Source: Nemertoderma westbladi (taxonomy: Eukaryota > Animalia > Xenacoelomorpha). From it: DNA of 32,575 bases. The stretch spans positions 1 through 32,575 of the forward strand of contig JAUCBJ010007684.1 in the NCBI GenBank assembly GCA_032718475.1. Direction: 5' to 3'. Below the pieces are notes generated by a model. It had not been told where the DNA came from. It searched no databases and worked only from the letters and a program-made list of their open reading frames with translations. Every line of letters begins with the position of its first letter. The stretch's first letter is position 1. The translations under genes were made by a program, and so were the position numbers. Of the stretch, positions 6,440-27,476 are shown in pieces.

Positions 6440-8905
6440 AACTCTATAAATTGTTTTTGGTGTTGTACTCAGTGGGTGTTATAGTGATGTTGGAACTCTA
6501 TAATTGTGTTTGGTGTGGTACTCAGTGGGCGTTATAGTGACGTTGGAACTCTATAATTGTGTTTGGGACATGGTTCTCAGAGGGTGTTACGGAGATGTTG
6601 GAACTCTATAAGTTGTGTTTTGTGTGGTGCTCAGTGGGTGTTATAGTGATGTTGGAACTCAATAATTGTGTTTGGTTTGTGATGCTGATTGGCTGTTATA
6701 GAGATGTAGAACTCGATAATTGTGTTTGGTGTTGTACTCATTGGTCGCTATAGAGATGTTGGAACTCAATAATTGTGTTTGGTGTTGTACTCAGTGGGCG
6801 TTATATTGATGTTGGAACTCTATAATTGTATTTGGGACATGGTTCTCAGAGGGTGTTATGGAGATTTGGAACTCAATAATTGTGTTTGGTGTGGTACTAA
6901 GTGGGTGTTATAGTGATGTTGGAACTCAATAATTGTGTTTGGTTTGTGATGCTGATTGGCTGTTATAGAGATGTAGAACTCGATAATTGTGTTTGGTGTT
7001 GTACTCATTGGTCGCTATAGAGATGTTGGAACTCAATAATTGTGTTTGGTGTGGTACTCAGTGTCTGTTATAGAGATGTAGAACTCTATAATTGTGTTTT
7101 GTGTTGTACTCATTGGTCGCTATAGAGATGTTGGAACTCAATAATTGTGTTTGGTGTGGTATTCAGTGTCTGTTATAGAGATGTAGAACTCTATAATTGT
7201 GTTTTGTGTGGTACTCAGTGGGTGTTATAGTGATGTTGAAACTCTATAATTGTGTTTGGTGTGGTACTCAGTGGGCGTTATAGAGATGTTGGAACTCAAT
7301 AATTGTGTTTGGTTTGTGATGCTGATTGGCTGTTATAGAGATGTAGAACTCTATAATTGTGTTTGGTGTTGTACTCAGTGGGCGTTATAGAGATGTTGGA
7401 ACTCAATAATTGTGTTTGGTGTGGTATTCAGTGTCTGTTATAGAGATGTAGAACTCTATAATTGTGTTTTGTGTGGTACTCAGTGGGTGTTATAGTGATG
7501 TTGAAACTCTATATTTGTGTTTGGTGTGGTACTCAGTGGGCGTTATAGAGATGTTGGAACTCAATAATTGTGTTTGGTTTGTGATGCTGATTGGCTGTTA
7601 AAGAGATGTAGAACTCTATAATTGTGTTTGGTGTTGTACTCAGTGGGCGTTATAGAGATGTTGAAACTGAATAATTGTGTTTGGTGTGGTACTCAGTGGG
7701 TGTTATAGTGATGTTGGAACTCTATAATTGTGTTTTGTGTGGTACTCAGTGGGTGCTTTAGAGATGTTGGAACTCAATAATTGTGGTTGGTGTGGTACTC
7801 AGTGGGCGTTATAGAGATGTTGGAACTCTATAATTGTGTTTTGTGTGGTACTCAGTGGGCGTTATAGAGATGTTGGAACTCAATAATTGTGTTTGGTGTG
7901 GTACTCAGTGGGTGTTATAAAGATGTTGGAACTCAATAATTGTGTTTGGTGTTGTACTCAGTGGGCGTTATAGAGATGTTGGAACTCTATAATTGTGTTT
8001 GATGTGGTACTCAGTGGGCGTTATAGTGATGTTGGAACTCTATAATTGTGTTTTGTGTGGTACTCAGTGGGTGTTATAGTGATGTTGTAACTCTATAATT
8101 GTGTTTGGTGTGGTACTCAGTGGGCGTTATAGAGATGTTGGAACTCAATAATTGTGTTTGAATGTGATGCTGATTGGCTGTTATAGAGATGTAGAACTCG
8201 ATAATTGTGTTTGGTGTGGTACTCAGCGGGCGTTATAGAGATGTTCGAACTCAATAATTGTGTTTTGTGTGGAACTCAGTGGGCGTTATAGAGATTTTGG
8301 AACTCAATAATTGTGTTTGGTTTGTGATGCTGATTGGCTGTTATAGAGATGTAGAACTCTATAATTGTGTTTGGTGTGGTACTCAGTGGGCGTTATATAG
8401 ATGTTGGAACTCAATAATTGTGTTTGGTGTGGTACTCAGTGGGCGTTATATAGATGTTGGAACTCAATAATTGTGGTTGGTGTGGTACTCAGTGGGCGTT
8501 ATAGAGATGTTGGAACTCTATAATTGTGTTTGGTGTGGTACTCAGTGGGCGTTATAGAGATTTTGGAACTCAATAATTGTGTTTGGTTTGTGATGCTGAT
8601 TGGCTGTTATAGAGATGTAGAACTCTATAATTGTGTTTGGTGTGGTACTCAGTGGGCGTTATAGAGATTTTGGAACTCAATAATTGTGTTTGGTTTGTGA
8701 TGCTGATTGGCTGTTATAGAGATGTAGAACTCTATAATTGTGTTTGGTGTGGTACTCAGTGGGCGTTATATAGATGTTGGAACTCAATAATTGTGTTTGG
8801 TGTGGTACTCAGTGGGCGTTATATAGATGTTGGAACTCAATAATTGTGGTTGGTGTGGTACTCAGTGGGCGTTATAGAGATGTTGGAACTCTATAATTGT
8901 GTTTT
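6440..8905. repeat. 53/54-bp tandem satellite, ~46 units with recurring variant types
   Basis: Consensus AACTCTATAATTGTGTTTGGTGTGGTACTCAGTGGGCGTTATAGAGATGTTGG (units at 8781 and 8834 are 53 bp apart); a 54-bp variant carries TTTGTGATGCTGATTGGCTG. Confidence 0.98.
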
Positions 8906-9386
8906 TATGTGTTTTTAATTGTGTTTAATTTTATTAATTAATCATTTTGTTTATTAAATTGTAAGGGCTTTTGTGGCCCATGATCAAATTTAATGAATAT
9001 TTTCAATATCCAGTCAATGTTTAGTAAAATATTTGATATCTTGTCAAATAATTGTTATAATTTAAAATATCTTGTCAAATATTTAACAATATGTTCTTAC
9101 AAATATTGTTAATATATCTTGCCAATTCTGAAAGATTGAAATTTCCACATGTCTATTTTGACAAGATAAGATATAAATCCTGACAAGATATTAATTGAAG
9201 TTTTCACCAGATATTTTTGACAAGAATATCCCTATTATTCTGACAAGATAAAGGACAAGTGTATTTAACTATAATAAATGAATTGTTGTGGGGTGAGTGA
9301 CGGTTAGTTAAATATATAATGTAGATAGGACAATATGATAATGCTCTCCATAGCGAAAAATATCAACCGACCCTGTTGGGGCTCGA

Positions 9387-9430
9387 ACCCGGTACCTAGG
9401 TTTCAAACTTACGGTTATCATCAGCCGGGT
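9387..9430 (-). ncRNA. Minimal type I hammerhead ribozyme motif (left arm)
   Basis: Exact reverse complement of the motif at 9587-9630. Confidence 0.75.
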
Positions 9431-9562
9431 GTGTGTACTGAGCTACCAGATCGGATGAAGATTTCACTATGGAGTGGGATATCATATTTAGTGATTAGAG
9501 TGATGTGATTGAGTGATTAGTTGGCCTAAATATGATATCCCACTACATAGTGAAATCTTCAT

Positions 9563-9663
9563 CCGATCTGGTAGCTCAGTACACACACCCGGCTGATGAT
9601 AACCGTAAGTTTGAAACCTAGGTACCGGGTTCGAGCCCCAACAGGGTCGGTTGATATATTTTT
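9563..9663 (+). promoter_or_regulatory. tRNA-derived Pol III unit: A box, B box and T5 terminator (mirror copy on the minus strand at ~9356-9454)
   Basis: TAGCTCAGT at 9572-9580, GGTTCGAGCCC at 9628-9638, acceptor-like pairing CCGATCTG/CAGGGTCGG, TTTTT at 9659-9663. Confidence 0.7.
9587..9630 (+). ncRNA. Minimal type I hammerhead ribozyme motif (right arm)
   Basis: ACCCGG-CTGATGA-TAAC CGTAA GTTT-GAAA-CCTAGG-TA-CCGGGT: 6-bp stem I, intact core CUGAUGA/GAAA, palindromic stem III ACCUAGGU, predicted cleavage after GUA (9624). The stem II closing pair is U-U rather than G-C. Confidence 0.75.
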
Positions 9664-9905
9664 CGCTATGGAGAGCATTATCATATTGTCCTATCTACAT
9701 TATGTATTTAACTAGATATATCTTGTCATTCTATATTTTTTTTGTCAATTTGACAGAACTTTTTTTAAGAGTGTAGTTAATTTTATTAATAAAAGTTTAA
9801 AAAATTAATAAATTACTTTACAGTTGTTTTTTTTGATCGTCGACATGAAATTTTATGGAAATGTTGACGAAAGTTAGAAAAATTGGAATGCCTGTACTAC
9901 TCCCC

Positions 9906-11188
9906 TTAACCCTATTAAACCTGGGGGGGCGGGAGTCAATATGACCCCCCCGTGGTTTTTTTATTATAATTCTAAAACAAACGCAGTTGGGAATCTGAAA
10001 TTTTATGACTTTTCCTAAAAATCTATTGTGTTCCTAGTAGTGAAAACCGTTTTCAAAAATATTGGGTAGTTTTCGAGTTATAGCACCATTTTTTAACCCT
10101 ACTTTTGGCACTTTTTTTGAGACGTTTTTGGAATATTAGATTTCATTAAATATTAATTGTAACATCTCTATTTTTGATTTATACCGGTTTTTTGGTGTTA
10201 GCAAGTGGATAGAATTCATATAAATTGATTTAGAAATTTCAAACTTGTTTTTTTCGGTGGGTGCTAAATTTTGGTGCCAGCACCAAATTTTGAAATATCT
10301 CAATTTTGTAAATTGATTGTTTAAAACTTGTTTTTTACGTAATTGGGGTTTTTTGGGGTTCTGGTTTCGATGAAATATATACGAGTTGCACCAAGCGTAT
10401 CAAACTTGTATTTTTCGGTGCTGTGTGCAAATTTTGGTGCTAGCACGAAATTTTGAAAATCCATTCAATAGATAAAATTGCTTGTGACAATTTATTTCTT
10501 GCATTTTAGAGGTTTATGGCTGTTCTAAATTCAATGGAATATATAATTATCGAAGTAGACATCTCAAACTTGTATTTTTCGGAAGTGGGTGCAAAATGTG
10601 GTGCTAGCACCAAATTTGAAAACCATCAAATATATCAATTGATTGTGTCATCTTGTTTCTTGCGTTATACGGGTTTGTTAGGGTTGTTAGAAATTTGGTG
10701 CTAGCACCAAAATTTGCCAAATTACGCCGAAAAATACAAGTAGCAATGATCTGGCATATTTGAAATGTATTCCATTAGAATCAGCGCCCTAGAAAACCTG
10801 AAAATGTGAATTTATAGCATCGTAAAGTGAATTAAAAATTTTGTATTCTAACTGAAAAGTGCTGGTTACTTGTTTTTTTCATTTTTTTCCTACGCATAGA
10901 GGACTAAACAGCCATTTATGTTAATCATATCATATTTAAATATTTTTCAATGTATTTTGCGCCCCAGAAAACCTGTATTGAAAACCAATTAGCCGAAAAA
11001 TGTAACTTTCAAATTTTGTGAAAATTGTGCACTACTTGTAATTTTGATGCTGCAATATTACCACCCCAGTACATACGAAATATTAGTAAAATATTTAATT
11101 CTGCCACTCGCCGCTAGAGGGACACAAAAAATTTTAAAATTTCAATTTTTGTTGCTCTTTGGCCTTCCCCACGTTGGCTGAACACAAC
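9906..11188. mobile_element. Non-autonomous TTAA-type (piggyBac-like) element fragment with ~163-bp internal repeats; right boundary uncertain
   Basis: Starts TTAA-CCCTATT...GGGGGGG...CCCCCCC. CAAACTTGT.TTTTTCGG...GGTGCTAGCACC units at ~10240, 10401, 10566 and inverted at ~10690-10741. Related sequence lies inverted at ~27955-28078. Confidence 0.55.
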
Positions 11189-11189
11189 T

Positions 11190-13615
11190 TAACAGTGATA
11201 TTCATGGGCACCCCACCACAACCAACTAATGACGAGAGGGGGGGGGGGGGGGGGGGCAGAGAATGCCCCAAGAGAGTCGGCAGATAATGCGCGCAGTGAG
11301 TTAAGTGAACCGTGGCACCAGATGGCGGACGAAAGGGGGAGGGGGTGGGGTGGCAGAGAATGCCCCACAAGGGTCGACAGATAATGCACGCAGTCAGTTA
11401 GTGAACCGTGGCACCCGCGACGGAGGAGGGGCAGAGAATGTCCCATGAGCATCGGCAGATAATGTGCGCAGTGAGTTAAGTGGACCGTGGAACCTGACGA
11501 CAGAGGATATTAGGAGGACTGCGAATATCCGTGGGGCCGTCCAACCAGGCAGAGACCATAAGCGGCCAAACGAGGAAACGTCGAGCCCACTTGGAAGACG
11601 GAAGAAGAACAGTGGAGTTCATCCCGGAGGTCGAAATGTGATCTCATGAGGGATGATTACACTGAAGTCAAAAGAAGCGAGGAGGGACGAGGAAGCATTG
11701 CTACTGGCAACCAGAGAGGAAGGACAGACAGTGAAGCGTCAATAGTCGAGGTGGAGAAGGAGAGCCGGTGGGGTCGTACTCTGGGAGATTGCTGTCGCCC
11801 CCGGAGAAACACAACCTGGCGAAATATACCACACACTGGGAGAGGGGTACAGAGTGTACTGATACGAGGAAGAAGATAGGAGAGGGGATCGGAGAGAAAC
11901 TTCCCGTCGGAACATAGCTGCCGATCAAGAATATGGTGGTTGCGGGTAGGACTTCTCGGAATATTCGAGAAGATTAAACTTCGATCCGGAAGGACATAGG
12001 CAGACTGCAGGATATACTGTAGGCCTTACTGGAGTGCCTTAAATATCTACAAGTCTATACAGGGGGGCCAGCATACGACATCGTGAGGCAATACCAAGGT
12101 ATTGAAGGAGGATTCACGACTGCATGGCGAGCCCTGGACAGGGAATTCTGCCATCCTGTGAAGATTATCCGACAAACCTTAAGGGGAATAACATCAGGCG
12201 GACTCGCAGACAACCCTGTTAGCATCAAAACTTTTGCTAACAAAGTAGAAAAGGCGCTAATAGTATTAAAGACTCTGTATGCACCCTACGAACTCAATGC
12301 ATCAAACAACATCACCACGATAGCACAGGCACTACCAATCTGGCTGAGAAATAAGTGGAGGAAGATTGCTTTATCCACTCGAGAAAAGAAAGGTGCGGAG
12401 CCAGGGTTGGAGGAGATGTCGAACTTCCTTAACTACGAGGCGGAGTTAACAACGGTTCCAGTCTATAGTGAGGACAGTCTCGGTAAAGTACCGAAAGCGG
12501 AATGTAGCTGACCTAAACCAGAACATAGTTTGGCGGATGCATTTCCGAAAGTGAGACAGTCGCTACCGCATGCGGCCATGCAGGGGACTTCTAGTCCACA
12601 AGGAGCTGGGAGTAGAGCCACACCGTGGCAGGGACAGAAGCAAAGCAACAACACAAACAAATACAAACCCAATACCCCCAGTAGGCTGAGTCCAAGTAAC
12701 CAAAACACTAAACTGCTAGATATGAATCTACGCGCAATACGTGAAGCGCTAAACAAAGAACGCTACAATCCCAATTACAAATGTCAATTGCATAGAAACA
12801 GAACCCATAAGACCATAAACTGCAAGCATTGGCAGGCGTTGCTTAAACAAGATCCAGTAGCTGGTAAGAATTGACTATGTCATCGATGCGCGGTAGGAGG
12901 ACACAGGTATGCCGAGTGCCAGGAACCGCCAGCAAAATATGCCCAGAGTGATGGGACTGGAGGCCAGGCGGTGGCGACAAGCACCATGGGAGCGAAGAAA
13001 AGGGGAACGGTACTACTCAGAGTGGTACCAGTGAGGATAATAGGGGAGGATGAGCTATCGGTTACGATGCTAATGCTGGTCGATAGTGGAGCAGCGTTCA
13101 CGCTAGCGGAAAGTTGGGTGGCCAAAAAGATAGGGTCACAGACAAGGCCAAGCAAGATGGTGGTAACCACTATCTCCAGTAAGGACGAGGTCATGAGAAT
13201 GAGATGCGTTGCGAGATAGCAGCGATAACACCAGGGTGCGATTATGGGGCTACCATCGAACCCATTCAGATAATAGAATCAATCAATATTAACGCCAGAT
13301 GACCCACATAGATTGAGGTCGAGCAATAACGGTACCTGGACAACATCGATTTCTCCGTGCCCGAGCTGGACATACCGATAGTATCTTTCATAGTCAGCAT
13401 GGATTGTCCGACAGCCCACGAGAGACTACAGACCGTTTTCGGCAAGGATAGGGAGCGAGTCCCGGTGGCGATTCTCACGCCATTCTGATGGACGCTCAGT
13501 GGCCCAATTAAGACCAGAATCCCGTATAGCGTGTCGGAATCCTCAGGGTGCATGTTCGCGGGGACAAAGAGGGAAATGGAGGACAAAGGAGCAGAGGAAC
13601 AAGTCAAGAGGCTAT
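11190..13615 (+). mobile_element. BEL/Pao LTR retrotransposon gag-protease region, degraded by stops and frameshifts
   Basis: DUF1759-like gag (YLQVYTGGPAYDIV...AWRALDREF...LPIWLRNKW...MSNFL), Cys/His knuckles including CHRCAVGGHRYAEC (CX2CX4HX4C, ~12878-12920), aspartic protease VLLRVVPV...LVDSGA, and PVAILTPF*WTLSGP. Confidence 0.9.
11255..11495 (+). repeat. Three ~85-100-bp repeats at the 5' end of the Pao fragment
   Basis: GCAGAGAATG.CCC...CAGATAATG..CGCAGT.AGTTA.GTG.ACCGTGG three times; copy 1 reads AENAPRESADNARSELSEPW. Confidence 0.85.
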
Positions 13616-13869
13616 AATTTACAGCCATATTTACTTTATAAATTGTATGAGCCTTGTCCTTCTGAGTTGGTTTCCGCAATTTTTAAGCAGGGTGGCACTT
13701 CATAAATCCTTCAAACCAATGGTACAGATGAGTTGTTGTTTTCAAATACCAGTTTAGAATATTTTCGTTTTTGGACAGTGGAGATATCTATGCAGCATGC
13801 ATACAACTGCACAATAGTTGGACTTAAATGGTAACCCCCCACAGCAACATAGTCAACATATGATGCCAA

Positions 13870-13904
13870 GACGTTTCGACCTTACTTGGTCTCATCAGCG
13901 TGGT
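13870..13904 (-). ncRNA. Hammerhead motif copy 1, 3' side replaced
   Basis: ACCACG-CTGATGA-GACC AAGTAA GGTC-GAAA-CG-TC followed by TTGGCA, which cannot pair with ACCACG. Confidence 0.65.
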
Positions 13905-14089
13905 GTCGGATTCGAACCTGGGACCTCGAGGAGGAAGCCGAGACTACAACCACTAGGCCACAGGTTCTTGAGATATGGAGTATTAATTTCAAAGCCAGCT
14001 GCCATTTTATTAGCCCATGATTTTTGTATGTTTTAAAATTGTAGGACTAATCCCATCACATGCGTACTTTTTAACCGGGTAGTGTACAA

Positions 14090-15633
14090 TGTGATGGGAT
14101 CAGGGGATCCCGACCAGTTAGGTTTATTTACGCGTCAGCTGCACCGTGTAGTTTGAGTTTGTTATTGTTCCAATATTCTTAATAGATGTATAAAATATAG
14201 TGTACGATGTAAGTATAATAGCAGATAGCACAGTTGACCGGTATGTGTGATATAATCGGCGACGGCAGTGACGGTCTTAAAGTGTCACCGTACTGCCCTA
14301 AGTGACTGAGTAAACTGAATTGTGATGGGCACTTGCACCATTCTTGTTTATTATTGTGGTTGACTATGTTCTACGCATGTCCTTAGATCATCATAATGAT
14401 GATGGAGTGATGATAACTCCACCTACTGGCTCCAGAAGTCGAGGAAATCCTGCCAAGTACCTAACTGATCTAGACTTTGCTGATTACTTAGGAGTACTCT
14501 CAGAATCATTAGAGGGAGCCCAACGGCTCCTCAGCTCATTAGAACATGCTGCTTCTAGTGTTGGTCTTTTTATTAACTCCAGAAAGACCAAAATTCTGAC
14601 AGTTAACTTTGAAAGTCCTCAGCAAGTCTCTGATCGGATGAGCATAAGCTCAAAGGATGGTATGCTTGAGCATGTGGACGACTTCTGTTACCTGGGATCA
14701 TGGATCCGGAAGTCAGGTGAGGACCTTCGAATACGTAAGGGAAAGGCATGGGCAGCCTTGAATAGGCTTTCCAGGATTTGGAAGTCACCGAGAATTAATC
14801 GGAAACTTAAGGTCCGATTATTTAGAGCAGCAGTAGTTCCAGAACTCCTCTACGGGAGTCCATGCTGGGCTCTAACTGCTGAGGACACCAAATCTCTGGA
14901 TGGCACATTCACAAGAATGCTACGCCGGGTTCATTGTGTCAAGTACAATGCACACATCTCCAACCAGACACTATATAACATTGGAGGTGTCTCATTGGTT
15001 CCCCCAAGCTTGACACTAGAACAAAATCGCCTCCGGTTTGCAGGACATTGCTTTCGCCGTGAGGACCAGCCAGTGCATAATCTTGTACTTTGGCAGCCTT
15101 ATGGAGTGAATAAGCATGGTGGACAGCCCATGACTTTCTTGAGACGCATCTTAAAGGACACTGGCCTTAAAGATGCGGATGATCTAGCAAATGTCATGGG
15201 TGATAGGGAGTTGTGGCGGTGCAATTTTGTTGACAAGCCGGCACAGCATTCTTAAAAATGCAGCTGCAATGCAGCATGCCGATCCTAGTAGTAGTAGTGA
15301 TGGGCACTGACCGGTAATAAATACATTGGTTAGCTACATTACTTATGGCCATTGTACCTAGCGGATGCATTTCCTGGCTCTGATTGGCCAATAACCTAAT
15401 TCTTGCCTCCACCTCTGTGGGAGTGTTTCCCCCCACCCAGCTGCTGTCACTTTCCTCTCCCGGAGGTTTAACCTCTGACCTCCCTTTGTGTGGCCCTTCG
15501 GGGTTTGTTGTTCCCATTTATCGGGTGTGTGATACGAGGTTAATTGGGGATTAACCTCGTATCCCCAATATGGCTTAAAGGCGCCACTTCCCACTTTATG
15601 GGGTTTGGTGAGGCGGAATTGAATCCGCTCACA
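14090..15633. mobile_element. Solo LTR (~570 bp after removing the nested LINE) with 5-bp TSD
   Basis: Termini TGTGA...TCACA; TACAA duplicated at 14085-14089 and 15634-15638; removal restores the array unit GTAGTGTACAAATTTTAGG; AATAAA at ~15316. Confidence 0.85.
14334..15296 (+). mobile_element. 5'-truncated RTE-clade LINE (RT C-terminal half)
   Basis: APFLFIIVVDYVLR, LTDLDFADY (FADD mutated), DDFCYLGSWI, RLRFAGHCFRR; (TAG)n tail 15286-15296; 12-bp TSD GTGATGGGCACT at 14322-14333 and 15297-15308. Confidence 0.93.
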
Positions 15634-15690
15634 TACAAATTTTAGGAATTGCATAATTTTTCTTGAAATTAATATCTCATATCTCTCTAA

Positions 15691-15733
15691 ACCACGTACG
15701 CGTTTCGACCTTACTGGGTCTCATCAGCGTGGT
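15691..15733 (-). ncRNA. Minimal type I hammerhead ribozyme, intact (copy 2)
   Basis: ACCACG-CTGATGA-GACC CAGTAA GGTC-GAAA-CGCG-TA-CGTGGT: 6-bp stem I, 4-bp stem II, palindromic stem III, predicted cleavage after GUA between 15697 and 15696. Confidence 0.9.
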
Positions 15734-16101
15734 GTCGGATTCGAACCTGGGACCTCGAGGAGGAAGACGAGACTACAACCACTAGGCCGCAGGTTCCTGA
15801 GATATGGAGTATTAATTTCAAAGCCAGCTGCCATTTTATTAGCCCCTGATTTTTGATTATTGATAGTAACAATATGTTGCCAAGCTGTATTTATCGAGGT
15901 GTTTGTTATTATACATTTATTATAGGAAGGGATCTAGGGGTCTTAACCTCGAATGATAAGTTTATTTTACCGAAAATAACTTTTCTTTTATTGGCGCAAT
16001 TGTAGGACTAATCCCATCACATGCATACTTTTTAACCAGGTAGTGTACAAATTTTAGGAATTGCGTAATTTTCTTGAAATTAATATCTCATATCTCTCCA
16101 A

Positions 16102-16144
16102 ACCACGTATGCATTTCGACCTTACTGGGTCTCATCAGCGTGGT
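16102..16144 (-). ncRNA. Minimal type I hammerhead ribozyme (copy 3)
   Basis: Same core and stems I/II; stem III is GAAA-TGCA-TA, still palindromic; cleavage triplet AUA. Confidence 0.8.
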
Positions 16145-16511
16145 GTCGGATTCGAACCTGGGACCTCGAGGAGGAAGCCGAGACTACAACCACTAGACCA
16201 CAGGTTCTTGAGATATGGAGTATTAATTTCAAAGCCAGCTGCCATTTTATTAGCCCATGATTTTTTATTATTGATAGTAACAATGTGTTGGCAAGCTGTA
16301 TTTCTCAAGGTGTTTGTTATTATACATTTATTATAGGAAGGGATCTAGGGGTCTAACTCGAATGATAAGTTTATTTTACCGAAAATAACTTATCTTTTAT
16401 TGGCACAATTGTAGGAGTAATCCCATCACATGCGTACTTTTTAACCAGGTAGAGTACAAATTTTAGGAATCGCGTAATTTTTCTTGAAATTAATATCTCA
16501 TATCTCTCCAA

Positions 16512-16554
16512 ACCACGTATGCGTTTCGACCTTACTGTGTCTCATTAGCATGGT
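16512..16554 (-). ncRNA. Degenerate hammerhead (copy 4), probably inactive
   Basis: Core reads CTAATGA instead of CTGATGA; substitutions in stems I, II and III. Confidence 0.7.
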
Positions 16555-16675
16555 GTCGGATTCGACCCTGGGACCTTGAGGGGGAAGCCGAGACTACAAC
16601 CACTAGGCCACAGGTTCTTGAGATATGGAGTATTAATTTCAAAGCCAGCTGCCATTTTATTAGCCCCTGATTTTT

Positions 16676-17137
16676 CAGATTGGATCCCACCATATCTACT
16701 GAACGATTATTCATCAACTTCAGTGCTATGATATCGTGTTTATAGAATACCTCAGTTTGACCGCGAGACATCAAATTATCACCAATAAAGTTAGGCAAAT
16801 TAACTCGATTTGTTTGAATGGTACCTAAGGAGTAGATGCCACGCTCGAATAGCGTTTGAACTAACTTTACAGAGTTGAAAAAGTTATCAAAGTATACCCA
16901 GGCATATGTGCCTTCCAGCTGTGCAGTTAGCCTGAGAATAACAGCTTCTCCCAATCCATGTTCAGAAGAATCCTTCGCACCTAAATATATCTCAATAACA
17001 TATATATACCCAGACTTGCTATCTGCCCGTATCCATAGCTTGAAGCCCCACTTGATAGGTTTCTTTTTAACGTATTGTTTCATTAGAGAACGCCCTTTGA
17101 ATTTACACATGTGTTCATCAACACATGTCCTTCTGTA
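16676..17137 (-). mobile_element. piggyBac transposase fragment (DDE_Tnp_1_7-like)
   Basis: VDEHMCKFKGRSLMKQYVKKKPIKWGFKLW...VYFDNFFNS...GIYSLGTI includes the first two catalytic Asp motifs; truncated at the hammerhead array. Confidence 0.95.
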
Positions 17138-18644: not shown

Positions 18645-21600
18645 ATAGACAGATAGATTTATTTATACATTATGTAAAAACAATAACAAATACACCAAAC
18701 AATGTACCGGTATAAAGGTATTGTCCAACATAACATTAGGATTACCCCTAAAGCTTTGCAGCTTATTTTCAAGGGGGTCCTTTATGTTACTTGGTTACAA
18801 ATACAATATTACACTACGCTAACCTAAAACCAATATAAAACGTAATTACACTATGTACATGTACAACTTTACCGAGAGCGTGACAATGCCCGACTCAACG
18901 ATAAAGATGTAATGTACAGAACAATTTATTATAAAACGTAATTACAGTATAAATAGTAAATAATTAATAAACTAATAACTTACTGTAGGACTATTGTACC
19001 TATTTTTACATTGCACACGGAGATGAGATTTAACTGCAGATTTAAAAGAATGTTGATTATTTAGGTTTTTAATTTCATTAGGCAGAGCGTTCCAATTTTT
19101 TATGCCGTTAAAAAAGAAAGTATCAGATTCAAAGGATTTACAATTCGGGAGGTAGAAGTTTGAAGCACTAGCTCTGGTGTGTATCGCGTACTCTGTTGAA
19201 TTTTTGTTTTAGGTAATTGGGACATTTACCATTATACACTTTATGCACATGGTTAAGGCGTAGCTGCTTAACTCTACTATCTAAGTTAAGTAGTCCAGAT
19301 TCAGAAAAGTCATCTGGAGTTAGGTGGTGCCTAGGTTTGTAGTCTTTAATAAATCGTACTACTTTATTCTGAGCTACTTGTAATTTACATTTAAGCTGTT
19401 TGGTTAAGCCTTCATACCAAGAAGAGCATGCATAGTCCATGTGACACTGTATTAAAGAAGAGCAAAGTAACTTGCGGGAGTCGGTGTTCAAACTATTTTT
19501 ATTTCTGTATAGAAACCTAAGCCTACTGTTAACTTTCGAGAAAATATTTTTCACTGTACTTTCTCCTGATAAGCAGTTATCCAATGTGGCGCCTAAATAT
19601 TTAACTTCCTTTTTATTTTCAATCTTATGTCCATTACTAGTGACTTCAAACTTAGTTACCTTCTTTAACTTTCTTTTGGAACCAAACAAAATACTTTCAG
19701 TTTTACCGTAGTGAATGGATAGCTTATTATCAACCAACCACTCATTACAGGATTCTAGAACTGCACTTAACTTTTGGGAAATATGGATAGGATCTTTATG
19801 ACAGAAAATAAGAGCACTGTCGTCGGCATATAAAAATGAGTTTAAAATCGGGATCTATACTACTTATCATATCATTTACATAGCATACAAAAAGCAGAGG
19901 ACCTAATATACTACCTTGCGGTACACCACAGGTAATCTCTTGTACTGTACAGTAGACAGCGATTTGCTAATGACTACAGTTTGACCTCTGTCTGACAGGT
20001 AGGACTTGAACCAGTCTATAGAACCTACACCCATCAGGCCTAACTTACCAAGCAGAATTTCGTGATCTACAGTATCGAAAGCCTTTTGTAGGTCCAACAT
20101 TACCATACCAGTATATAAACCCTTTGCGTTATTACATCTAATTGTATCAGTTAAGTTAATAAGGCAGGTGTCTGTAGAATATGATTTACGAAAACCGGAC
20201 TGAAGTTCATAGATCAGATTTAGCCTACTAAGATGTGCCTCCAGCTGTAGAAAAACAGAACGTTCTAGAATTTTAGATACAATACTTAAGATACTAACAG
20301 GTCTGTAATTACAGGGTTCTACTTTACTCTTCTTTTTATACAGAGGAACAACCTTAGCTAATTTCAGTTCGTCTGGTACTACATTATCTACGATAGAGTA
20401 ATTAATAATAAAAGTAATAGGCACTTTAAGTACTTCAGCACCATCCTTAAGAAAACGGGCAGGTATTAGATCTAGACCGGTACTTTTTGAGGCTGATAGG
20501 CTAAGTAGATTTTTAAAAACGAAATCCTCAGAAACGGGTTTTAAAAATAACTTTTCTGAATTTTGTAACTTTTCTAAATAAAAATTATTTAGAGTTTCGG
20601 ACCCTATACTATATTTATTACTTGATAACGGTAATTTCTTAACTAAATTAGAGGCAACATTAGTAAAATAATTATTAAATAAATTACTAACTAGAGTATG
20701 ATCATGAATCAGCTCACCGTTATGTTGCAGAACAATATTCGATTTAGATTTAAGGTTTTTTTAACCTAAAGATTTTAGGGTAGACCATAGACTTTTTGGA
20801 TTATCTTTATTCTCACTTATTTTGTTGTACAAATATTCAGATTTCGCTTTTTTTATTTCCCGTTGGACAAGGTTTCTATATTTGCAGTAATTATTATAAT
20901 CAGCTAAAACACGGTATTTCCTAAATTTATACAAATAGTTATCTCTTTCTCTGATATTACTAAGAATACCCGAGGTCATCCAGGGCTCAGTGCGTTGTTT
21001 AAGACTAATTTCTTTAATTGGTGCTACAGTATTAAGTGCCTTGTAAAATATATCTTTAAAAACAGTGTACGCAAGGTTAATGTCAGCGGCCTTAAAACAG
21101 GGTTCCCAGTCAGAATTAACTAACAAACTTAAAAAGCGTTCCTTGCTGTAATTTTTCATAGACCTAACTGTTACTGTTTTATGATCCCCGAAAAAAGATT
21201 TGTGTGTCTTTCTTGTGCAAAAAACTATAAAATGATCGCTTAGACCTATAGGTAAAACCCCAGATTGAGAAATAATATCGGTATTATTACAAAGGATGTG
21301 ATCTAGTAAAGTAGAAGTTTTACTGGTAATTCTGGTAGAATCTCGAATAATTTGTTTTAAACCAAACAAATTTAAAATACTTTGGTACTGTTTACAGATG
21401 GGGGATGCTTTGTGATGGTAACAGATATTAAAATCACCTAAGAAATATATTTCACAGTCTGACCTAAGATTACATAAAATTGTATTTTCAAAATTTTGCA
21501 AAAAATCTGATTGTTTAGGGGGCCGATATAAAGTACCGATTAAAATAGGTTTAGTTTTAGGAAGTAAAAGTTCCACCAGTAAAACTTCGTCACAAGTCTC

Positions 21601-22490
21601 TAAATCTTCCCTACGATTAAAAGCTAAATCACATCGAATGTAAGTACACACACCACCACCGTGTCTGTCCCTATCCTTACGTAAAACTACGTAATTATCA
21701 ATATAAATTTCTCCATCAGAAACACTATCATCGAGCCAAGTTTCAGAGATTGTTAAAACTGCTGGGTTGGATTTATTGATTAAAATACGAATTTCGGAAA
21801 GTTTTGGAAGCAGAGATCGTGCGTTTAAGTGCAAAAAATGCAGACCTTTTTTCTTAAAAAAATTAAAAGTTTCACTCTCAGCATCACTTGGAGTTTGCAG
21901 AGGCGATGTGAGAAATGAATCGTCGGTTTCTGATTCTAAAATTGTATCATGAAAGGGAAGTTCGGTAAAAATACAGCTATTGCAGAGAAAACTTGGTTCA
22001 AGATTGTTTCTGGTGGAGAATAAATTACTGCGTTTCCTACGGTAACATTTTAAATGTACAAATGTGTCACAACTCTCGCATTGGACGATCTTACTCCGAG
22101 AGTTTGTTCCTCGTTGACAGACGGGACAGTTGATCTTCGGGGCCCGCGTCCTGCTGGGTCCTGGGTTGGTCTCAATATCCCCAGCCAGAGACAGTAGACA
22201 GAGTTTAGCGATTAGGCCTCTAGATCGTGGAGAGGAGACCCAAGATCTTCTTCCCCGACGAGAGCAGTAGAGGCTAAATCCACTCGTCGACCACATCTCC
22301 GTCGATTCGGCGCGTAGTTCGAAACGGTAGCGACAGGGTGTTCCGCAAACCAGTCCAATACGGGTATTGGGTGGGTTGCAGGGTTACCCCGCGGATCGGA
22401 TGGTTCTGCCACAACGAAAAGACCCAGAACGATGAAAACTGTGGAGATTAAGAGCGGGGACATTGTGCTGTCTGGCTGTAGTCTGACTCA
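18645..22490 (-). mobile_element. Near full-length CR1/L2-group (Crack-like) LINE: leader, 2A-like peptide, PHD finger, AP endonuclease, RT; inactivated
   Basis: PHD CPVC...QCESCDTFVHLKC...CNSC; APE HLNARSL, ISETWL, GTLYRPP, LGDFN, LLDHI, SDH; [42 protein letters not shown] (~19820-19831). Stop at 20761-20763 and frameshifts at ~19950, ~19835, ~19175; AATAAA plus TCTA-like tail at ~18645-18665. Confidence 0.95.
22156..22179 (-). other. 2A-like ribosomal StopGo motif DIETNPGP
   Basis: LLSLAGDIETNPGP fits D(V/I)ExNPGP, in frame directly before the PHD-APE domains. Confidence 0.9.
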
Positions 22491-26097: not shown

Positions 26098-26645
26098 AGT
26101 CACAGCCACTCAAAGCTATGTTACAACCACTCAATGCTATGTCACAGCCAATCAACGCTATGTCACAGCCACTCAATGATATGTCACAGCCGCTCAATGC
26201 TTTGTCACAGCCACTCAAAGCTATGTCACAGCCACTCAAAGCTATGTCACAGAGCCACTCAACGCTATGTCACAGCCAATCAACGCTATGTCACAGCCAC
26301 TCAATGCTATGCCACAGCCACCCAACGCTATGTCACAGCCGCTCAATGCTATGTCACAGCCGCTCAATGCGTCACAGCCGCTCAATGCTTTGTCACAACC
26401 ACTCAAAGCTATGTCACAGCCACTCAACGCTACGTCACAGTTACTCAACGCTATGTCACAGCCACTCAACGCTATGTCTCAGCCAATCAACGCTAGCCAC
26501 CCAACGCTATGTCACAGCTAATCAACGCTATGCCACAGCCACTCAATGCTATGCCACAGCCACCCAACGCTATGTCACAGTCACCCAACGCTGGCCACCC
26601 ATCGCTGGCCACCCAACGCTGTGTCACAGCGACAGCCACTCAACA
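26098..26645. repeat. 21-bp minisatellite, ~26 copies
   Basis: Unit GTCACAGCCACTCAACGCTAT with point variants and small indels. Confidence 0.97.
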
Positions 26646-26815: not shown

Positions 26816-27476
26816 ACGGATATCCTTGGTGGATCGGACTCCGGATTCAGTGATATCGACGGATCCTTGGTGGAACGGACTCCGGATTCAGTGATATCGA
26901 CGGATCCTTGACGGAACGGACTCCGGATTCAGTGATATCGACAGATCCTTGGCGGAACGGACTCCGGATTCAGTGATATCGACGGATCCTTGGCGGAACG
27001 GACTCCGGATTCAGTGATATCGACGGATCCTTGGTGGAACGGACTCCGGATTCAGTGATATCGACGGATCCTTGGCGGAACGGACTCCGGATTCAGTGAT
27101 ATCGACGGATCCTTGGCGGAACGGACTCCGGATTCAGTGATATCGACGGATATTTGGTGGAACGGACTCCGGATTCAGTGATATCGACAGATCCTTGGCG
27201 GAACGGACTCCGGATTCAGTGATATCGACGGATCCTTGGCGGAACGGACTCCGGATTCAGTGATATCGACGGATCCTTGGCGGAACGGACCTCCGGATTC
27301 AGTGATATCGACGGATCCTTGACGGAACGGACTCCGGATTCAGTGATATCGACGGATCCTTGGCGGAACGGACTCCGGATTCAGTGATATCGACGGATCC
27401 TTGGCGGAACGGACTCCGGATTCAGTGATATCGACAGATCCTTGGTGGAACGGACTCCGGATTCAGTGATTTCGAT
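26816..27476. repeat. 41-bp minisatellite, ~16 homogeneous copies
   Basis: Unit GACGGATCCTTGGCGGAACGGACTCCGGATTCAGTGATATC (GACTCCGG at 26837 and 26878). Confidence 0.98.

Follow-up and report, generated by a model that had tools for sequence, protein, structure and literature searches.

What is a hammerhead ribozyme motif doing between the A box and the B box of a tRNA-like unit? The question is raised by positions 9563-9663 of a 32,575-nt stretch of the Nemertoderma westbladi genome (assembly GCA_032718475.1, contig JAUCBJ010007684.1, positions 1 to 32,575 of the forward strand; the whole stretch is called the window below). A sequence-only reading of this DNA had proposed a transcript of ~100 nt, made by RNA polymerase III (Pol III) and able to fold either like a tRNA or as a ribozyme. 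We found that the module is a copy of a mobile element within a head-to-head double insertion, and not a stand-alone gene. The explanation that we consider probable is that it forms one arm of a young double insertion of a short, non-coding, non-autonomous and very abundant retroelement with a hammerhead motif between its promoter boxes. The element would likely be mobilised by Penelope-like elements (PLEs), the boxes would serve as an internal Pol III promoter, and the predicted ribozyme would cut between 9624 and 9625 only in a dimer formed through stem III. Dependence on PLEs, use of Pol III, self-cleavage and the route of double insertion are what we infer from the observations below.

The insertion occupies 443 nt (9272-9714), with the motif at 9587-9630 in its right arm. 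A palindrome of ~410 nt (9305-9714) holds the module twice, in inverted orientation: 9356-9491 and 9526-9661 are 99% complementary over 136 nt, 9305-9363 and 9656-9714 are 98% complementary over 59 nt, and the left and right arms show only three differences. Both arms point their 3' ends outward and are joined by their 5' ends at the centre; the 3' end reads ...CATTTATTA and has no A-run. In two DNA runs there are contigs in which 9259 is followed directly by 9703, so that 443 nt are skipped and 12 letters fit both sides. We take this joint for the empty site, present where the host repeat has paralogous copies; with the repeated 12-mer it points to a 443-nt insertion with a 12-nt target duplication. 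Outside 9272-9714, coverage of the flanks comes solely from the contig with this joint. The right end of the insertion is the target 12-mer, and the left arm retains the element's own base at the corresponding position (A instead of G, 9704/9315). As the right arm ends in the target 12-mer, one base off the element's own sequence, the right copy was seemingly primed internally at a site identical in 11 of 12 positions. The 33-nt tail of the left arm is itself high-copy, and 26 contigs of run X1 and 17 of run X3 leave the family at 9271 into unrelated AT-rich DNA. From 9509 on, the centre recurs in other copies joined to right-arm sequence, the joint lying at 9509-9511 in four of the contigs listed. 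The host sequence (9016-9259 and 9715-9741) is itself repetitive, its depth being roughly tenfold that of single contigs; it abounds in TTGACAAGATA motifs, both direct and inverted, and its other copies supply the empty site.

The available portions of Craig et al. 2021 (PMC8557442) give as hallmarks of PLEs an adjacent inverted copy truncated at its 5' end, a one-sided tail of 30-40 bp and a target duplication of variable length, and describe the tail and the inverted structures as not seen with non-LTR elements. Measured against that partial account, the locus has all three: inverted adjacent arms, a one-sided tail of 33 nt and a 12-nt duplication. It differs in that its unit is about 230 nt long and non-coding, in that this copy lacks a partial tandem (pseudo-long terminal repeat, pLTR), and in its target, which is AT-rich and not a (TA)n microsatellite.

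Direct reading of 9300-9960 found each sequence element named in the sequence-only reading where it had been placed, including a hammerhead motif between A-box and B-box matches and a T5 run after the T-arm (Table 1). The motif is of minimal type I and has the expected core identities (C3 U4 G5 A6 N7 G8 A9, G12 A13 A14, A15.1-U16.1, and an H17 that is not G). Its stem II consists of three pairs and a U.U at 10.1/11.1, where G10.1-C11.1 is normal and where a minority variant has A-U. Stem III can form either 2 bp with a tetraloop in a molecule alone or 8 bp between two copies (script and cofolding). The very short palindromic helix III and the lack of loop-loop contacts are those of PLE-type minimal hammerheads. 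The motif exceeds chance resemblance: a search pattern for the hammerhead module matched twice in the window and not once in 100 shuffles, CTGATGA-N10-24-GAAA occurred five times against a shuffle mean of 0.37, and a full minimal-hammerhead descriptor requiring stem I, core, stem II, GAAA, palindromic stem III and H17 matched four sites in the window against none in 500 dinucleotide shuffles.

Table 1. Coordinates of the double insertion, of the parts of its right arm and of the second hammerhead family in the window.
Feature	Position	Strand	Basis or remark
Left target-site duplication copy, TGTATTTAACTA	9260-9271	.	12-mer identical to 9703-9714
33-nt extension (tail), 3' end of left arm only	9272-9304	-	outside palindrome
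Left arm, inverted element copy	9305-9491	-	inverted-repeat match
Mirror copy of hammerhead motif, identical	9387-9430	-	predicted cleavage between 9393 and 9392
Centre joining both 5' ends, 34 nt	9492-9525	.	inverted-repeat match
Right arm, ends at internal site 11/12 identical to target	9526-9702	+	arm comparison
5' arm of imperfect enclosing stem	9529-9555	+	inverted-repeat match, 27 nt
Acceptor-like helix	9564-9571 / 9642-9649	+	7/8 pairs, ARAGORN -ps80 drawing
A-box match, TAGCTCAGT + AC	9572-9582 (TAGCTCAGT = 9572-9580)	+	9/11 to TRGCNNAGTGG
Minimal type I hammerhead motif	9587-9630	+	direct reading, script check, descriptor
Stem I, ACCCGG / CCGGGT	9587-9592 / 9625-9630	+	6/6 pairs by script
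Core CTGATGA	9593-9599	+	direct reading
Stem II, UAAC/GUUU	9600-9603 / 9609-9612	+	3 pairs + U.U (9600/9612)
Loop II, CGTAA	9604-9608	+	direct reading
GAAA	9613-9616	+	direct reading
Palindromic stem III, ACCTAGGT	9616-9623	+	own reverse complement
Predicted cut, after A9624 (between GUA and C)	9624/9625	+	sequence reading
T-arm/acceptor 3' part, GGGTTCGAGCCCCAACAGGGTCGG	9627-9650	+	direct reading
Weak T-stem, GGG / CCC	9627-9629 / 9637-9639	+	ARAGORN drawing
B-box match, GGTTCGAGCCC	9628-9638	+	11/11
T5 run, Pol III terminator-like	9659-9663	+	20 nt past B box
3' arm of imperfect enclosing stem	9661-9687	+	inverted-repeat match, 27 nt
Right target-site duplication copy	9703-9714	.	same 12-mer
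Solo copy of 411-nt family	13872-14089	-	in BEL/Pao-like retrotransposon remains
411-nt tandem array, 2.5 units	15634-16675	-	two of the three loci are its units
Intact second-family hammerheads	15691-15733 and 16102-16144	-	descriptor, reading
Decayed second-family hammerhead	~16513-16556	-	core CTAATGA, B box GGGTCGA

The family was sampled in three DNA runs of one organism, with contigs at identities of at least 80%. In the three runs, 1588, 874 and 108 contigs fell on 9200-9800; for 9526-9720, a single arm, the numbers were 1055, 570 and 74. The unit is repeated in very high copy, dispersed and also present in inverted pairs. Contig depth is not equal to copy number, and linkage between sites is not visible in contigs. 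Depth profiles dip at variable sites because the contigs are short, and the ends of the element were not placed from them. Copies reach to about 9509-9526, ~60 nt upstream of the A box, and to 40-85 nt past the T-run.

Seventeen places in the 195 nt of 9526-9720 vary at a level of at least 2%, six of them within the 44-nt motif. With 9589 C>T, stem I retains a G.U pair; 9597 T>A affects N7, the one core position that is free to vary; 9600 T>A replaces the U.U at 10.1/11.1 by A-U; and the variants at 9605, 9606 and 9608 all lie in loop II. Across the family contigs, none of the fixed core bases, stem III, the cleavage site and the 3' strand of stem I showed a variant at this threshold. The fold tolerates 38 of the 132 possible substitutions, and the probability of six compatible changes out of six is about 6e-4 to 3e-3, depending on how transitions are weighted. 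The pattern of variation fits the hammerhead fold. Two of the runs have one contig each that connects 9392 with 9625, giving inverted arms whose starts both fall exactly on the predicted 5' product end, and three contigs have an inverted joint at 9624; as a hint of cleavage in vivo these joints are anecdotal. A low-depth contig (3.15) from a second organism, in a run guessed to be RNA, covers 9621-9708 and departs from the window sequence 4 nt ahead of the predicted cut; it was not used. Elsewhere, a metagenome scan with a loose pattern found the hammerhead-plus-T-arm string in none of at least 120 unrelated loci, and a viral contig scan and a genome contig scan gave 0 matches each.

The tRNA-like part was scored against the A-box consensus TRGCNNAGTGG and the B-box consensus. 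The two boxes are 45 nt apart, a tRNA-like spacing, and the T5 run follows 20 nt further on; at the level of sequence the three compose a complete tRNA-gene-like layout, which a script search of the window found only in this family. The B-box pattern GGTTCGANNCC occurs five times in the window against a shuffle mean of 0.06, and all five matches coincide with the five loci that have CTGATGA-N10-24-GAAA. Among the family contigs the A box has no variant at 2% or more, and the B box has rare variants only. Other subfamilies carry TAGCTCAGTTG and nine further bases that restore a D-arm-like hairpin (loose ends at 9581). Variants that keep or improve pairs of the acceptor-like helix are 9566 A>G with 9647 T>C, 9567 T>C and 9642 C>T, and the T-run is shortened to T3 in 21 contigs each of runs X1 and X3. 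ARAGORN at its default settings found 0 tRNAs, and the cloverleaf of a tRNA gene was not recovered; at an 80% threshold it drew an 87-nt pseudo-cloverleaf (9564-9650) in which part of the hammerhead core is read as a 'GAT' anticodon loop. Because the 3' strand of stem I has bases in common with the T-stem and B box, formation of one of these helices excludes the other. To that extent the proposal of mutually exclusive tRNA-like and ribozyme folds holds; the predicted structure of minimum free energy (MFE), given below, is neither fold.

A second hammerhead family, with a 411-nt unit, was reached through BLAST of the first family's unit against the window, which gave three minus-strand loci. 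It is built of a tRNA-like head (A box TGGCCTAGTGG, B box GGTTCGAATCC) with the hammerhead directly after it: ACCACG-CTGATGA-GACC-N6-GGTC-GAAA, a palindromic stem III, and a predicted cut between A and CGTGGT. Rfam scores for this family were 26.0 bits for Hammerhead_1 and 24.2 bits for HH9, both sub-threshold. Pairs were compared by script among the four hammerheads of the window. Between the 9587-9630 motif and the second family, both sides are changed in stem I pairs 2.2 (G-C vs C-G) and 2.3 (C-G vs A-T) and in stem II pair 10.3 (A-T vs C-G); G10.1-C11.1 of the second family is the U.U of the 9587-9630 motif. Stem III is palindromic in three spellings (ACCTAGGT, ATGCAT and ACGCGT). The acceptor 3' strand that ARAGORN draws in the second family (ACCACGC) is the 5' strand of the hammerhead stem I plus C3, and thus the two families have in common a stem I that uses one strand of a tRNA-like helix. 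The solo copy begins at the same position of the unit as the array does and breaks off about 4 nt short of the predicted cut, which as a hint of cleavage is anecdotal. BEL/Pao-like pieces (DUF1759, aspartyl protease, reverse transcriptase (RT)) lie at 12023-15252 on the plus strand, and a piggyBac-type transposase fragment (16535-17137, minus strand) abuts the array.

The sequence-only reading had also drawn a long imperfect stem around the module. This stem is real and pairs better in the family majority than in this copy. Its arms are 78% complementary here, and it is present in the MFE structure of 9526-9690. The family majority has C at 9545 (all depth, X1 and X3) and at 9551 (about 80-85%), with which 12 of 13 pairs form to 9661-9673; C at 9548 is less uniform (about 45% in X1, 74% in X3). 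No variant at 2% or more was seen in the family contigs across 9662-9700.

When two copies of the 9587-9630 motif were cofolded, an 8-bp intermolecular stem III and swapped stems I were predicted to form; the full double hammerhead came to -28.4 kcal/mol, against an MFE of -31.4 kcal/mol for this copy and of -33.2 to -34.6 kcal/mol for family-majority variants. For two copies of the second family's motif, the double hammerhead is the cofold MFE. Alternatives for the 87-nt RNA were predicted at -9.7 kcal/mol (acceptor plus hammerhead) and -4.1 kcal/mol (acceptor plus T-stem), and folding z-scores were ordinary (0.49-0.54). The suggestion that the palindromic stem III is a sign of dimeric cleavage gains from the predicted 8-bp stem and agrees with the dimer-dependent minimal PLE hammerheads in the accessible text of PMC4209133. 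In these models the folds would fit the low in vitro activity and dimer dependence given for such hammerheads in that text, as well as the U.U motif of the axolotl. The particular locus at 9272-9714 is probably inert; transcription through it would give a hairpin of ~190 bp with only one sense ribozyme.

Sm-alpha and Sj-alpha, which are SINE-like hammerhead retroposons of Schistosoma (SINE, short interspersed nuclear element), were reportedly described by Ferbeyre et al. in 1998 and Laha et al. in 2000. In the parts of PMC6765202 and PMC2770079 that could be consulted, Sm-alpha consists of tandem units in which a canonical hammerhead comes after a Pol III promoter; PMC8490949 has nothing on the promoter layout of Sm-alpha. 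On that partial account Sm-alpha and the present family are alike in being high-copy, short, non-coding retroposons with a tRNA-type Pol III promoter and a type I hammerhead. In Sm-alpha, however, the promoter precedes the ribozyme, whereas here the motif is placed between the boxes and overlaps the B box and T-stem, so that cleavage would split the promoter. The Sm-alpha ribozyme, as far as the same sources go, is canonical, fast and stabilised by loop-loop contacts, whereas the present motif is of the minimal type, its stem III being palindromic and its stem II containing a U.U. Sm-alpha stands in tandem arrays and the present family is dispersed, with inverted pairs; it does not have the Sm-alpha layout. 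The 411-nt array does share with Sm-alpha the order of Pol III-type boxes and then hammerhead, in tandem units.

Also comparable to the present motif are the minimal hammerheads in PLE pseudo-LTRs, which the available portions of Cervera and de la Pena 2014 (PMC4209133) describe as dimer-dependent and of low activity in vitro. Going by those portions, the two have in common type I topology without loop-loop contacts, a short palindromic helix III that implies a dimer, and massive copy numbers in invertebrates. The present family differs in that no PLE coding sequence is attached and the motif is nested in a tRNA-like unit; helix II, of 6-8 bp in Schistosoma and Drosophila according to the same part of PMC4209133, has three pairs and a U.U here. 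Metazoan non-LTR retrozymes are short non-coding hammerhead repeats that have been proposed as non-autonomous partners of PLEs (PMC7229834; preprint 10.64898/2026.07.22.740005). One of them, the axolotl HHR_Amex2, has the U.U at the base of helix II as the present motif does, still cleaves, and does so better as a dimer (PMC7229834). Retrozymes seem to be promoterless according to a 2020 review (PMC7761336) and form tandem arrays, whereas the present family is dispersed and has Pol III-type boxes and a terminator-like T-run; the 411-nt tandem units fit the retrozyme class well. A literature search that paired tRNA, SINE or Pol III with hammerhead or Penelope gave no tRNA-type promoter in a PLE-dependent short element and no hammerhead between A and B boxes, provisional results in that many papers, the original Sm-alpha work among them, lay outside its coverage. 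The family is a new layout of a known kind of element, with the ribozyme motif between the promoter boxes.

The mechanism that we favour would run as follows. The A and B boxes would supply an internal promoter for Pol III, and the reverse transcriptase/endonuclease of a PLE would mobilise the element. The predicted ribozyme would cut after GUA only when two copies pair through stem III. At insertion, each end of a break staggered by 12 nt would serve as a primer for reverse transcription, with two RNA copies as templates; synthesis of the left arm would begin at the true 3' end and that of the right arm at the internal site identical to the target in 11 of 12 positions, and the two cDNAs would then be joined at their 5' ends.

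Several observations weigh against this mechanism. No PLE gene (RT plus GIY-YIG) was found by Pfam in a search confined to the window, nor is the unit the pseudo-LTR of a PLE-coding element with such an open reading frame in the window. Pol III would terminate at the T5 run, short of the 3' part found in every copy, and since copies extend both upstream of an A-box-directed start and past T5, a single-unit Pol III transcript was not the template. The tRNA likeness is confined to the boxes and the acceptor-like helix, and 9647 T>G (about 20%) breaks that helix. As to the ribozyme, stem II is weak, with only three pairs plus the U.U; Rfam gave no match at gathering thresholds anywhere in the window, and at E<=10 neither a hammerhead nor a tRNA over 9250-9760. 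The cofold MFE swaps stem II for a competing hairpin and leaves the double hammerhead 3-6 kcal/mol above it, and the MFE of the 87-nt monomer (-23.0 kcal/mol) pairs 9565-9573 with 9623-9631, burying the cleavage site. The variation test is built on six sites only, with depth that is not copy number and linkage unseen, and the cleavage-site joints are two among dozens of joints.

The strongest competing explanation, which we nevertheless regard as unlikely, is an ordinary tRNA-derived SINE mobilised by a long interspersed nuclear element (LINE), in which the hammerhead-like stretch would be a decayed relic or by-product and the inverted pair a one-off rearrangement. A and B boxes of tRNA origin, high copy number and 5' truncation are shared with such SINEs, depth rises from 5' to 3', and the window contains non-LTR elements that have an endonuclease and RT. 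The weak stem II, the lack of an Rfam match and the unfavourable predicted folds would suit a relic, and PLE clades without hammerheads proliferate well according to the consulted part of Craig et al. (PMC8557442). The boxes do have tRNA-like spacing; yet the element neither begins at a Pol III start directly before the A box nor has a LINE-type, repeat or A-rich tail. Copies begin ~60 nt upstream of the A box, well before the tRNA-like part and not at tRNA +1, T5 is internal, and the anticodon and variable region is replaced by the ribozyme motif. By BLAST the 3' part of the element is dissimilar to the LINE of the window. The one-sided 33-nt tail with an inverted arm is a PLE signature, and a relic is further opposed by the six of six frequent motif variants that are compatible with the fold and by the both-sided pair changes relative to the second family.

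Equally improbable in our view is a bolder version of the PLE-driven mechanism, in which the tRNA-like unit and the hammerhead are coupled by design and the RNA toggles between the two states. In two families of the genome that are unrelated to each other, stem I would borrow a strand of the tRNA-like fold, from the T-stem and B box in the 9587-9630 motif and from the acceptor 3' strand in the 411-nt family. In its tRNA-like state the unit would be a Pol III promoter in DNA, and the RNA might recruit tRNA-processing or RtcB-type ligase factors; the ribozyme state would arise only from two RNAs joined by way of their palindromic stem III, and this dimer would be the template pair that Penelope-type enzymes use at both ends of the break. 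If true, this would explain the long-unexplained head-to-head double insertions of PLEs and define the first SINE-like class dependent on PLEs.

A little less likely again is the original proposal of a Pol III gene of ~100 nt, starting near 9563 and stopping at T5, whose RNA switches between tRNA-like and ribozyme folds and serves a separate function. An A box with a B box 45 nt on and T5 a further 20 nt on makes a complete tRNA-gene-like layout that only this family has, the acceptor-like helix shows a double change from A-T to G-C, and stem I and the T-stem share bases. Thousands of dispersed copies, a target duplication and truncations, on the other hand, are the marks of a mobile element, the T-run is only T3 in many copies, and the MFE of the RNA is neither fold, at an ordinary z-score (0.49-0.54). 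The copied unit exceeds the 100-nt RNA on both sides, which disposes of an A-box-to-T5 RNA as the mobile form: Pol III may well produce a 100-nt RNA, yet that RNA cannot have served as the template for copying.

We hold a fold-back or MITE-type (miniature inverted-repeat) DNA transposon, with the arms as terminal inverted repeats and the 12-nt repeat as target duplication, to be very improbable. It would account for a near-perfect pair of inverted arms of ~190 nt within a direct 12-nt repeat. The arms, however, are unequal, with a 33-nt extension on one side; single arms occur alone, with heterogeneous flanks at 9271 and 9689-9702; the right end is target sequence that differs from the element in 1 of 12 positions; and each arm is directional, its promoter boxes and sense ribozyme motif pointing outward.

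That CUGAUGA is a chance resemblance, the remnant of a tRNA anticodon loop (anticodon GAT) with a long variable arm, is scarcely credible: the cloverleaf that ARAGORN draws at 80% (9564-9650) is tRNA-Ile(GAT)-like and CCGG at 9589-9592 could pair with CCGG at 9603-9606 in the family majority, but the two commonest variants (9605 G>A, about half of depth, and 9606, T here) break that stem at positions that are loop in the hammerhead model, for which this anticodon-loop reading was rejected, while the full descriptor had 0 matches in 500 shuffles and the build recurs in the second family with both-sided pair changes.

With the PLE-mobilised retroelement as the favoured explanation, the family bears on a wider problem. 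Hammerhead repeats of animals and PLEs are abundant, but little is understood of their transcription and of their tandem and inverted insertions. With its complete tRNA-gene-like Pol III layout, its dimer-type hammerhead motif and its PLE insertion signature, this very abundant family would offer a concrete, testable system in which it can be asked who transcribes the element, when the ribozyme cuts and how two copies come to insert back to back. If the ribozyme is dead, the family is merely another SINE-like repeat.

The window as a whole is rich in transposable elements by Pfam. A non-LTR retrotransposon on the minus strand (19171-22383) has a PHD finger before its endonuclease domain, followed by RT, in three frames. 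Upstream of the double insertion, 6440-8904 is a satellite array of 46 copies of a 53-nt unit (also with a 160-nt period) and a strong GC skew. Two further tandem arrays, one of 24 copies of a 21-nt unit (26099-26592) and one of 16 copies of a 41-nt unit with a 96% match (26822-27475), overlap long open frames without a family match.

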